Shown: in pieces, positions 25,752 to 31,060 of the stretch
Layout: every line of letters begins with the position of its first letter
How positions within the stretch are numbered: position 1 is the first letter of the stretch
Assembly (NCBI GenBank): GCA_024137785.1
Contig: JAHRHZ010000087.1
Coordinates: 10,795,415 to 10,859,414 of the forward strand
Direction: 5' to 3'
Length of the DNA stretch: 64,000 nucleotides
DNA from: Ginglymostoma cirratum
Taxonomy: Eukaryota
Program-made: the position numbers and the translations under genes
The notes under the pieces: model-generated
What the model was told of the DNA's origin: nothing
The model's database searches: none
What the model saw: the letters and a program-made list of their open reading frames with translations, nothing else

Positions 25752-25987
25752 GTAAGTTTCAATATTAAAGTCGGCTACCTGTAAATGTCCTGCTTTTAAT
25801 CACAATTTGCCACTGGAGAAATAGGGAATGGTATACTGCTACAAGATTTCTAAATCTGCTATGTTTTAAAGGTACCATCAGTCTTCAAGTGACTGAAATT
25901 GAAGCAAGTGCAAGAAGTGATGGCAGCCACTGGCATGCCACCAGATTTTCTCCTGCTATATGGCTATCTTTCTGGAGAAAATATGAA

Positions 25988-26018
25988 GCTTCTTGGCCTT
26001 TTGGCTAAGATCAAGCGT
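25988..26018 (+). pseudogene. RNU2: U2 snRNA 5' fragment (about nt 4-34)
   Basis: gcttcttggccttttggctaagatcaagcgt vs U2 GCTTCTCGGCCTTTTGGCTAAGATCAAGTGT: 29/31 identical. Confidence 0.92.
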
Positions 26019-26165
26019 CAAGTTATGAGTTATAAGAGCTATTGAGATTGTCGCTGGATCATGATTGGATGTTGGAAGACCTGTTAGTTGAGCTGACCGG
26101 CTATTGGTGAATCTTTATGCTGTCTTCAGCCTAACGCTAATTCAGGAAAAAGCCAACCTAGAGCT

Positions 26166-27390
26166 ATGGATTCAGCACGCACCCGTGCCCCAGGTCAGGA
26201 GGTGGCCTGGAAGAAGCTGCACCGGTTGATTGGATGTTTTTTGTGAAGAGGGTTCTGCTGGACTGCTGTGGATTCCAAGCGGCAGACATCTCCTGCCTGC
26301 AAGATTTCCCCAGCGGTGGATATTTTGATGTGACTTCCCCAAATCCCTGGCAAGATACGTGAAAATGGAGAGGAGCAGCAGTGATGTGACGGACCCCTTC
26401 AGGATCTGGACCAGTGAACAGCAGGTTAAGGTAACCCTGAGGGCAGATGTGGATGAGAACATCCTCCGCCCATCGTCCAGATTTGTATTTAGTGGGAGCT
26501 GAGGCTACCTGACATATGCAGGGCACCCCAAGGTGTGTCAGACCTGCGGGAGGTCAGCGCACGTGGTGGAAGAGTGCACTGTGACCCTGTGCAGGACCTG
26601 GTATGGAGGAGGGACACCTGGCAAAGGACTGCCAAAAGACACAGAATTGTAACCATTGTGGAGAAGCAGGCCATCTGTATATGATATGCTCAGGACAGGG
26701 GGCTGCACCTGCTCAGATGGTGAGTGGGAGCAATGTGGGCCGAACCCTCCCAAAGAACAGTAAAGTGCCACCCTCCAGCGGGGAAAACTAACAGGCAGGC
26801 ATGCAGCAGGAGGGTCAAGCTGCAGAAGAGAGACATGGAGCCAGCGCAGAGGCAGAACAGACTCCTCCCCCTCACGAGAATCTGAGTCGATGGAGGAGGA
26901 GGTGATGAAGGAGTCAGAGGAGTGGAAAATGGTCAAGAAAAAACCTCACCAGGCCCCCATATCCCAACAACAGAACAGGAAGCGGCAGCTACAGGATGGC
27001 CAAAGAAGCTCCTCTGATGAAGAGGATTCAGAGGGAGGGCCATCATCAAAAAAGGAGGATCAAGGTTACCAGGGATAAACAGAGGTACTACCCTGCCCAA
27101 AAATGGTGGATGTCAGCAGATCCCTGGCAAAACTCAGCCGTCCATTGTCGGGAACCTGGGGGCTCCCTCCACGTCACAGCTCCAGGTAATCGAGAGTAGC
27201 AGCACTTCAAGTAAGGAGCTGGGGACGACAGCTCCACCTCCGCCCCCCCCCCAGACGGGAAATGGCCCGAGAGACGAACTGAACAGCTACCTCAGCCCTG
27301 CGAGAGTCCAACTGTTTGCCCACATTATGGGGATGCAGGGACTACCGCAGTGATAAGATCTCAAGAAAACGGACATCATGCTCTAACCAT
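26166..27390 (+). pseudogene. Tx1 ORF1 (ZCCHC3-like zinc-knuckle RNA-binding protein), frameshifted
   Basis: MFFVKRVLLDCCGFQAADISCLQDFPSGGYFDVT (from 26234); YAGHPKVCQTCGRSAHVVEEC..C..EEGHLAKDC..CNHCGEAGHLYMIC; charged low-complexity tail. Confidence 0.85.
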
Positions 27391-27404
27391 TGTATCAACC
27401 TAAA

Positions 27405-30132
27405 ATGGGTTTTGTAAACTGTAAATACTAAGGTGGGTAGAGTTAAATCTACCACGTGATGTAATTCCACATTAGCTTACCTGGCCTACATTAAAGCAGA
27501 CCTCCTGCTTCTGCAGGAGTGTGGGATACTGCACCTCAGCAGCGACAGGAAATGGTCGAGCTTGTGGGCCTATTGGCCTTCAATTTGCTTGGTGAGCAAA
27601 GATTGCTGCTCCTCCTGCCTGGGTAGTCTGCTGTGAGGAGTCAACTTCACCGTCTCTGAAGTTAAGGAGGTGGTGTGTGAGTGCCTCCTCCTGGCAGACA
27701 TTATGTAGAGGAACGCTCCCCAAGACTGACTAATGTGTACATCCCAGTGGTAAAGAGTGAGCGTTTGGCCATCATGCAACAGCTTCCACTCCAGCTGGCT
27801 ACACCCAGGCAGGTCATTCTGGCGGAGACTTCAACTGCATCATCAATGCAGATGGAAGATCCTGTGTGGGGTCAAGCCAGTGTTCTTCTCTAACCACTGC
27901 CTTATGTTGGCCAACTGTCACCTACAGGATGACCAGCAGGCTGGCAAGGGAATGTGGAAGCTTAATGTGAAACTGTTGACCCCAGAAAACATTGGAGGAG
28001 CTCAAAAGAGATTACACGGGTTGGAGAACCGTGAAGCCCATCTTTGAGTCTCTAGGGGGTATGGTGGAAACGGTCAAAGCGAACATGAAGAAGTTCTTTA
28101 CCTTCAAAGGTGTTCAGAAGGCGAGAGAGAGGTGGAGAAAACTGAAACAACTCCAGAAAAGGATGCAGAACCTGCTCCTGCTGCAGACAATGAGGGTCGA
28201 TGTCACGGATGATCTCTAGGAGGTGAAGAGCCAGCAAGTTTCACGCTTCGCCTCAGTGGCCACCAAGTTAATCTTCTGGTCCAGGGTCTGCTCTTTGGAG
28301 CAGGATGAGAACTGCTTGCGTGCCTTGCAGAAGATGCACAAGGAGAGCTCTGTGCTCAGCAGCCTGAAGGAAGATGATGGTTTGGTAATGTCATCTCAGT
28401 CTGACATCCTGTAGATCATCAGATCTTTTTGTGCCAGACTGTATGACATGAAGCCCACAGGCAGCGTGGCCTCCCAGTCATTCCTGCCCTCTATCATTGA
28501 GATCTTGGATGACAACAAACCGGAGAGGCTGGACCAGCCACTATCGCTGGATGAGCTGACCAAGGCCCTCCAGTCTGTGGAAAAGAATAAAACTCCCGGA
28601 AGTGATGGCTTACTGGCCGAGTTGTATTCCGCTCTGTGGGACTTTATTGGCCAGGACCTGCTGGAGGTGTAGAACAGTATGCTTCGGGTAAGTACCATGT
28701 GTGAATCCGCGAGGAAAGGCATCATCACCCTCATCGACAAGCAGAAGAGGGAGAGAGAAGAAATTAGAAATTGGTGACCAATTTTGCTGTTGAACGTAGA
28801 TTATAAAATCCTGTCTAAGGTCATGGCCAACCGGGCCAGATCTGCTGTGGGATTGTTAATTCACCCCGACCCAACCTGGGCAGGAAGATTGCTGAGAACC
28901 TTGCGCTCCTCAGGGATAAGGGATACAATCACCTACGTGCAGGACCGAGGGATAGATACCTGCCTCATCAGCCTGGACCAGGATACTGTGCACGTGCATG
29001 AGTGGTGTTCTCTCCAAATTGGGCTTCGGGGAGGAAATCTGCAATTGGATCCGACTGCTCTCCACCAACATTGTTAGCACAGTCTCCATCAATGGGTGGG
29101 AATCAGAAAGCTTCCCAATCTAGAATCAGACAGGGCTGCCCACTCACCTGTCTTTTTTTGTATGCTGCATAGAGTCCTTTCCTGAGTCCGTCAGGAAAGA
29201 TGCGAGCCTGAGAGGGGTGACTGTTCCAGGCAGTGGAGGCCTGCAGGTCAAATTCTTGCTGTAAATGGATGAAGTGGCCGTTTTCTGCTCGGATCCCCAA
29301 TGCTGCCCTCACCCTGATGGCCAACTGTGTGTGTGGCTGCGTCAATATGTGCATAGATCCTCAGTACGCAGGTGCCAAGTGTCACTACTTACTGAGATTC
29401 TACCTGTGCCTGGTGTTGTGCAGGATAGGCTTGGCCTCATTGCCGTGGAATGCTCCAAGTAGTTGGATTATCGCATACCACCTTTCGTTCGGGGAGAAAT
29501 TTGTGAAGAAAAATACCTTTGACCATAAGTCCACGAGGCAGTGGTCAGCACGTAGTGTCCTCGAGAGCCTTCAGGAAAAGGAGAGGGTGAATCTTGTCGA
29601 GTGGTTCCCTGTGCAGACTGCCCAAGCCATTTGGCAGAATGCCTCATCACCGGCGCTTTCCAACAAGCACCAGGACATTGCTTGGCTGGTGATGGTGAGA
29701 AAGGCTCTGCCTGCGAGATTCTTCATGCACGCTTAGACTCTCTGTGCCACCACACACTGCCCTCAAAGTGGCTGCAGCGGGGGTGAGACTGTCAAACACC
29801 ACCTTCTGGAATGTGCTTATGCGAAGGAGGGAAATGCAATGGTTTTTGTTGAGGTTTGTCCCAAACAACTCCGTGACGCAGGACTCTGTGCTATACGGTC
29901 TGTTTCCCAGGACATACACCAAGACCAACATCACCTGTGCCTGGAGGACCATCAACGCGATGAAAGATGCACTTTGGTCTGTCTGAAACTTGCTGGTCTT
30001 CCAGTTGAAAGAATTGACCCCGACTGAGTGTTGCAGACTGGCTCGTTTCGAGGTCTCGGACTATGTGCTGAGGGACATAATAAAGCTTAGGACCGCTACC
30101 ACATTGGCACAGTGGGGAAAGACCACTGTGTA
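27405..30132 (+). pseudogene. Tx1 ORF2 (APE endonuclease, reverse transcriptase, zinc-binding C-terminus), disrupted
   Basis: DLLLLQE, NVYIP, GDFNC, (S)NHCL, GMWKLN, KTPGSDGL..ELY, LLNVDYKILSKV, SLDQ, RQGCP, MDEVAVF, CPQSGC..ETVKHHLLEC. Many stops and frameshifts; deletions near 27865 and 29298. Confidence 0.92.
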
Positions 30133-30659
30133 AAGTCCTTCTGCCAAAGCAAAGCAGGGGGTCCATTCAGTAACCAGACCCTGCCGATGCCTCAGCTAAA
30201 TGCCAAGAGTTTAATTGTAAAAATAGAGAAGGACAGATGCCAATATTTATTTCATTTGCTGTAAGTAATGACCGTATAGATCGGAGTGGCTACATTTAAC
30301 TGTGTATGCACATAAAGATTTCCTTCCATGAATAAAGTATATTTTTGCAATTAAAAAATGAGGCATGAGTGGAATGTTCCTCTAATGAGGTCGGAGGGGG
30401 AGAACAAGCTATACAACTGCCCAAACACACTCGTCTTCAACCAGAAACCACATTGGTGCAAGATAACACTGGAACTAACATTTACCCGATCTTTCTTTCT
30501 TTTAGAGCACAGGTTTGGTCCATGTCTTTCTGTGCTCAATTGAAACTCCACTTAATGCATTCTACCTATATATTAAATACAGTGGACATGCAATTAACAT
30601 AGATGAAGCTATCCGTATAAATTAACACACTTCTGCAGAATAAGAAGTTTAATGACTTG

Positions 30660-31060
30660 ACCACAGAATCACCAAATTTGTTAAAGGGCAGAAGGAGGCC
30701 ATTCAGCCCATCATGCCTGCACTGGTTCTGTTACGTAATGCCAATCTCCTGCCTTTTCCCCATATTCCTGTATGCCATTTTTATTCAAATAACCATGCCC
30801 TCTTGAATGCCTCAACTGAACCTGCTTCCACGACATTTCCAAGCAGTGCATTCCATAACCCAACTACTTGCTGCATTTTTTTCTCCCATCACCCTTGCTT
30901 CATTCGCACATTGCTTTAAATTATACAGAAAAAAAGAACGAGAGAGCATAAGTGGAACAGCTTCTCCCTATCAACTCTGTCAAGCCCACTCATGATTTTG
31001 AAAACCTCAATCAAATCTCCCCTCATTCCCAGCTTCTTCCATCTATCTTCATAACTGAGA
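30660..31060 (-). mobile_element. Old CR1 LINE 3' fragment
   Basis: Minus ORF LSYEDRWKKLGMRGDLIEVFKIMSGLDRVDREKLF. Confidence 0.85.

Follow-up and report, generated by a model that had tools for sequence, protein, structure and literature searches.

The window analysed here is a 64,000-nt stretch of the Ginglymostoma cirratum genome (GCA_024137785.1, contig JAHRHZ010000087.1:10,795,415-10,859,414, forward strand). At 25988-30358 it contains the remnant of a LINE, which carries a piece of U2 snRNA at its 5′ end and is bounded by a candidate target-site duplication (TSD). Its parts are as follows, in window coordinates.

25978..25989, plus strand: candidate left TSD, agreeing with the right copy at 10 of 12 letters; its last 2 nt overlap the U2 head
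25988..26018, plus strand: U2 snRNA-derived head, U2 nt 4-34, 29/31 against the U2 gene L031; Rfam U2, E=6e-4
26019..26165, plus strand: 5′ UTR of the family core, from the alignment of copies; the same core start bears U1 heads in relatives
26166..27353, plus strand: ORF1 remnant, ends approximate, from tblastn with the ORF1 of an on-target (U2-resident) relative; broken, with about 177 bp deleted
27405..30133, plus strand: ORF2 remnant, start approximate, with AP endonuclease, reverse transcriptase and zinc-binding region; tblastn 55-88% piecewise
30134..30358, plus strand: 3′ UTR (type A), which carries a poly(A) signal (30331-30336), ends in an A tail of 6 nt and has no U2 remainder behind it
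30353..30364, plus strand: candidate right TSD, overlapping the A tail

The initial annotation described a U2 piece fused to a Tx1-type LINE, and this is confirmed: the head, compared with an intact U2 gene from the same genome (L031), is the sole U2 match in the 64-kb window. Its Rfam score of 28.7 bits lies below the U2 gathering score of 46, and no Rfam gathering score was reached anywhere in the window. A U2 remainder was sought 3′ of the A tail and not found, in agreement with the annotation; the 1-kb flanks, compared with promoter regions of U2 (five) and U1 (one) and with a CR1-like monomer, likewise gave no convincing match, the best being one of 22 nt (E=0.008) approximately 830 nt upstream.

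Both ORFs are present behind the head, as had been described, but only as remnants; they align piecewise to the proteins of the on-target relative at 37-88% identity, with stops and frameshifts (tblastn), and relative to the family reference approximately 177 bp of ORF1 and approximately 189 and 451 bp of ORF2 are deleted. In the on-target relative, ORF1 encodes ZCCHC3-type RNA-binding domains and zinc knuckles, whilst ORF2 matches the Pfam families RVT_1, Exo_endo_phos and zf-RVT; the piecewise alignment of the window remnants to this ORF2 provides the Tx1-type features (AP endonuclease, reverse transcriptase). We take the element to be a Tx1 LINE, a label drawn in part from named distant matches; the closest named protein pieces among the matches listed are from Mobula (79%) and Heterodontus (75%), which fits a cartilaginous fish. 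The 3′ UTR is 80-86% identical to those of the other 39 scored copies (best 40 of the candidates). The window copy is a dead LINE and, as a single copy, an ordinary one.

The degenerate TSD that had been proposed outside the U2 piece is located where expected, overlapping the head by two letters; however, 13 of 126 pairings of mismatched flanks reach that score, and it is therefore not significant alone. For the family as a whole the TSDs are real, with a score of at least 8 in 22 of 64 copies versus 2.4% of 758 mismatched pairs; no strict target motif was seen at the off-target sites in the TSD list. In small shares of 11 sequencing runs no empty site was seen. Contigs from two runs of one other organism span window positions 30331-30717 (tail and 3′ flank) at approximately 94% identity, so that this organism seems to share the 3′ junction and the insertion seems older than that split.

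The U2 head in related copies

Copies were sought in the same genome. Queries with the 5′ end turned up 101 and 149 preliminary candidates, and queries with the 3′ end 2492 and 340; these are not copy numbers, and the best 40 of each were scored. With a query restricted to the core, the best 40 places comprised one from the on-target family, four truncated within the core, and 35 at the core start. An adjacent U2 head scoring above the maximum of a control (500 random segments) is present in 22 of these 35, joined to the core at U2 nt 34 in 20 copies and at nt 35, with a spacer, in two. The others have weak U2 heads (two copies), adjacent U1 heads (seven, one of them weak) or none that is recognisable (four). 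In 12 of the 20 copies with the nt-34 junction the head starts at U2 nt 1-6. U2 promoter DNA was found in none of 54 upstream flanks, and neither U2 nor U1 follows any of 56 distinct 3′ ends (best score 12.6; control maximum 14.6; positive control 95).

Since the nt-34 junction is fixed in 20/35 copies, the heads start near +1 and no upstream flank holds promoter DNA, the head belongs to the inserted unit and is inherited. This bears out two expectations of the initial annotation, namely that the head travels with the element from near U2 +1, and that no U2 remainder would follow at the 3′ end. A third expectation, that all full-length copies be U2-headed, fails in part, since the head is U1 in seven of the 35 near-full-length relatives. 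Head type tracks subfamily: wherever a copy with the window copy's type of 3′ UTR has a recognisable adjacent head, that head is U2 to nt 34, and U1 heads are confined to the B and C groups of copies.

Across the wider group the heads end at U2 nt 34, 35 and 48-58, and at U1 nt 21, 28, 31-33, 43 and 52-59. The long heads, which end at U2 nt 48, 51, 52 and 58, at U1 nt 52-59 and at CR1 nt ~53, terminate near the position expected for the nick plus a TSD. Some heads are stacked: in L130, L127, L240 and L236, U2 (with ends at nt 48, 51, 52 and 58) is followed by U1 and then the core; L125 has U1, then U2; and L109 has U1 (14-52), a CR1-like segment (1-~53), U2 (2-34) and the core. Full-length copies bear the first 31-58 nt of hosts which are also insertion targets.

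Insertion sites in U2, U1 and CR1-like hosts

Keno, a U2-specific family of the Tx1 clade, was reportedly described by Kojima and Fujiwara in 2004. Its target lies 37 nt into U2 (PMC6136364). Among 30 U2 loci fetched from 43 U2 matches, the tail of a second family precedes the U2 remainder in seven, in every case at U2 nt 38-41. The window's own 3′ UTR type adjoins U2, at nt 39, at one of the 30 loci (L043/L091), which came from the U2 search and not from the census of 56 3′ ends; a 3′ junction at the Keno position is found at this locus, and neither in the window copy nor in any of the 56 flanks. No U2 5′ half was found in the 17 kb read upstream of L091. At four loci the 5′ structure of the second, on-target family consists of the U2 promoter, U2 nt 1-51 and then the family's UTR; a nick at nt 38 with a 5′ junction at nt 51 implies a 14-bp duplication.

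No named Keno sequence was among the matches listed in the protein searches, and the U2-resident family of this genome served as the comparison. Its majority sequence differs from that of the window's subfamily by 9.5%, versus 12-20% from other groups (2878 non-CpG columns), these distances being biased because the reference used for alignment derives mainly from copies of the window's subfamily. In an unrooted FastTree phylogeny of 51 rows, each with 1400 or more non-CpG columns, these two separate from all other groups with a support of 1.0 (L091, L116 and L130 were among the rows below this limit and were left out). The proposed relationship to Keno is supported in that the window's subfamily is the closest tested relative of the on-target Keno-like family, and one of its copies adjoins the Keno site. 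Copies diverge from their own majority by 3.5% in the on-target family and by 8.4% in the window's subfamily; by this sequence measure the U2-resident family is the youngest of those compared. With the tree unrooted, a course from Keno-like targeting to a relaxed one would be conjecture.

The on-target family (L094, L095, L097, L092, L096) has long open frames, with an ORF1 of 542 aa and ORF2 pieces of up to 794 aa; it is young, stands in tandem in some U2 loci, and the U2 loci that it occupies vary in sequence but have a promoter region in common. Some variant U2 loci (L143, L144, L148, and also upstream in L096) contain at their Keno site an approximately 115-bp non-coding insert with a U2-like start, twice in tandem in L148, which is a candidate U2-headed SINE riding on the on-target family. 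A U6 snRNA fragment occupies the Keno site of a further U2 locus (L146:1322-1428, minus strand; the same place as L048), with an apparent duplication of 13-14 bp, which suggests trans-mobilisation of U6 to the U2 target.

In U1 loci, identified by means of the genome's own U1 genes, a tail of the group precedes seven of 35 U1 matches, at nt ~35-45 with scattered junctions; one of these loci has an intact U1 gene 13 kb away. No U1 5′ half was found within the 4.25 kb read upstream of the seven, so that they may be genes split by the insertion, whose 5′ halves are gone or lie farther off, or else copies made by 3′ read-through from sources within U1.

Common 3′ flanks of the group's copies are the 5′ ends of another LINE, presumably CR1-like; expected of such an element are an SGNH/GDSL esterase ORF1, followed by an endonuclease ORF, and a 5′ UTR made of monomers. 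The monomers here are approximately 119 nt long, and the ORF1 matches Pfam Lipase_GDSL_2 with E=2e-7 and 32.2 bits, just missing the cut-off of 32.9. A sense CR1-like ORF1 lies within 1.5 kb of eight of the 56 3′ flanks, with none antisense, as compared with one of 240 strand-windows in the control (p=8e-6; 6/54 and p=2e-4 without the two query loci), and three further flanks start directly in a CR1-like 5′ UTR monomer. In the reverse direction, with one CR1-like monomer as the query and 30 of 47 rows fetched, representing 26 elements, the group's tail occurs at one common site in seven elements (6/25 without the query). Among 22 CR1-like loci without a tail at the site, 16 start within -4 to +8 of a point 37 nt upstream of it, two start earlier, and four are without that segment. 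Two of the six reverse-test cases (L338 and L346) have a common inversion and may be one duplicated event. The motif TCTG stands at nt 39-42 in both U2 and the CR1-like site, in the same register, and is absent from U1 in that register, so that sequence and position are confounded in U2 and the CR1-like site.

These findings qualify the relaxed target specificity that had been claimed: none of the 56 ends lies in U2, but there is a strong bias to CR1-like 5′ ends (8/56) and U1 genes (7/35). The U1-gene cases and the six reverse-test CR1 cases belong to sister subfamilies, with types of 3′ UTR unlike that of the window copy. In L100, L111 and L338/L351, successive monomers of one CR1-like 5′ UTR have been struck by separate insertions of the Tx1 group. 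L129 and L101 are suggestive of 5′ transduction from CR1-like sources, the 3′ ends being missing for most.

Origin of the head

We read the window copy as a dispersed, dead Tx1-type copy, of a subfamily near the U2-resident Keno-like family, whose U2 head would derive from a source resident in a U2 gene and driven by the U2 promoter (probability roughly 0.6). A copy of the group that lands just behind the active start site of a host gene would become such a source, and the host promoter would then yield a chimeric RNA, in which the host's start precedes the element. Reverse transcription running to the host's +1 would give daughters that bear the head wherever they insert, mostly at unrelated A/T-rich sites, the window copy being one such daughter. 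The nt-34 junction may have arisen through a target-site deletion of a few bases at a single source insertion. Because relatives sit ~35-45 bases into U2, U1 and CR1-like hosts, and bear the starts of those hosts, it is likely from the sequences that the group relies on the promoters of its hosts and has none itself. The positions in the hosts which give heads match (U2 nt 38; U1 nt ~35-45; CR1-like, 37 nt past the usual start).

A U2-resident master copy transcribed from the U2 promoter was also the mechanism of the initial annotation, which is likely in outline and too narrow. The fixed, inherited junction and the Keno-like kin favour it, whereas the window's core was not found at the U2 site in any of 13 candidates with a U2 promoter; what these contain is the on-target family, a U2 gene (intact or variant), a small insert, or just a head. 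Also counted against capture from a U2 gene are the nt-34 junction, which falls short both of nt 38, the position of the nick, and of nt 51, where on-target copies join at their 5′ end, and the occupation of variant U2 loci by on-target copies, whereas the heads resemble canonical U2. Just one intact canonical U2 gene with a promoter was found in the 4.36-Gb assembly, and U2 arrays may thus be collapsed or missing there.

The difference between junctions at nt 34 and nt 51 would be accounted for if the head had been acquired in a single event, through a template switch onto U2 snRNA or a joining of the two RNAs, with later sources using other upstream or internal promoters. The meeting of U1 and U2 heads with the same core position is consistent with such an event, as is the U6 fragment at the Keno site, in which the machinery handles snRNAs in trans; snRNA/L1 chimeras are known, and Kojima proposed template switching for SINEU (PMC4494074). 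Such chimeras reportedly do not, however, propagate themselves, as described for U6/L1 (10.1101/2025.02.02.635956), yet 20 copies have this junction and mostly start at U2 nt 1-6, and the hosts which give heads are themselves insertion targets at matching positions. Template switching is a fair rival, although we consider a single addition of this kind unlikely. The variety of head ends in the wider group (U2 to 34, 35 and 48-58; U1 to 21, 28, 31-33, 43 and 52-59) could instead suggest that a head is gained anew at each insertion, through a switch, once the element's transcript has been copied to its end, to some short, capped and plentiful RNA such as an snRNA or a paused transcript; the tracking of head type with subfamily, with U2 to nt 34 as every recognisable adjacent head on window-type 3′ UTR copies and U1 in B and C, renders this improbable. 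Least plausible is an insertion of the window copy in place, within a U2 gene or pseudogene whose promoter and 3′ half were lost later, which we regard as very improbable. The weakness of the window TSD by itself and the failure to see an empty site are compatible with it, and L091 and the U1 loci show that interrupted snRNA genes can lose halves; but neither flank of the window copy holds a promoter or U2 remainder, many unrelated loci have exactly this junction, and L099, L107, L112, L115 and L116 have clear TSDs outside the head.

Beyond transcription of a source from the U2 promoter, we tentatively suggest that the group may be a promoterless LINE that targets by position, ~35-45 bases behind active Pol II starts (U2, U1 and a LINE promoter), and that hops from host to host, stacking the captured starts. 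If position and not sequence guides the endonuclease, this would be a mode of targeting not found for Tx1 elements in the literature searched, in which there was also no report of Tx1 at U2 in sharks, nor of Tx1 elements that target U1 or CR1; Repbase Reports and the bulk of subscription papers lay outside that search.

Comparison with known systems

Keno is described as a U2-specific family of the Tx1 clade (PMC6136364, PMC4640811, PMC4494074). The shark subfamily resembles it in being an AP-endonuclease LINE, whose closest tested relative sits at the published Keno site and one copy of which adjoins that site; it differs in that none of 56 sampled 3′ ends lies in U2, and in its travelling U2 head ending at nt 34. 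The shark group differs further by inserting also in U1 genes and CR1-like 5′ ends. Weakened U2 specificity has been described for Utopia, which has 5′-truncated copies without flanking U2 (PMC4640811).

Keno relatives that lie outside U2 genes and are headed by U1 or U2 have already been described in crocodilians, where Tx1-Mar elements include Tx1-11_Crp, with a U2 head, and Tx1-2_Crp and Tx1-4_AMi, with U1 heads (PMC4494074). The group analysed here likewise comprises Keno-related Tx1 elements outside U2 genes, with U1/U2-derived 5′ heads and a preference for another transposon; the common flanks found here are 5′ ends of a CR1-like LINE, and the preference of Tx1-Mar is for Mariner-N4. For the crocodilian elements PMC4494074 invokes template switching, whereas insertions before U1 remainders and host-derived stacks in the shark point to insertion plus promoter capture. 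Recurrent stacked U1 and U2 heads are also a feature of SINEU-1, -2 and -3 (PMC4494074), the shark element differing from these as an autonomous-type LINE with ORF1 and ORF2. Reliance on a host promoter recalls R2, which is co-transcribed with 28S rDNA (cited in PMC4494074), and targeting by distance from a gene start recalls TRE5-A, which inserts position-specifically near tRNA genes (PMC5391098); these belong to other clades and depend on other polymerases, whilst the candidate starts here are those of Pol II and the site lies within the transcribed region.

It is the family, rather than the single copy in the window, that matters, as it bears on the transcription of snRNA-headed retroelements. 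Kojima 2015 (PMC4494074) leaves open the transcription of SINEU and the reason for repeated head addition. That the hosts supplying heads in the shark are also insertion targets at matching distances offers a testable answer, namely insertion, promoter capture and re-export. If the group does target by position and hop between host promoters, this would also explain the recurrent U1 and U2 heads and the transcription of the crocodilian SINEU and Tx1-Mar elements.
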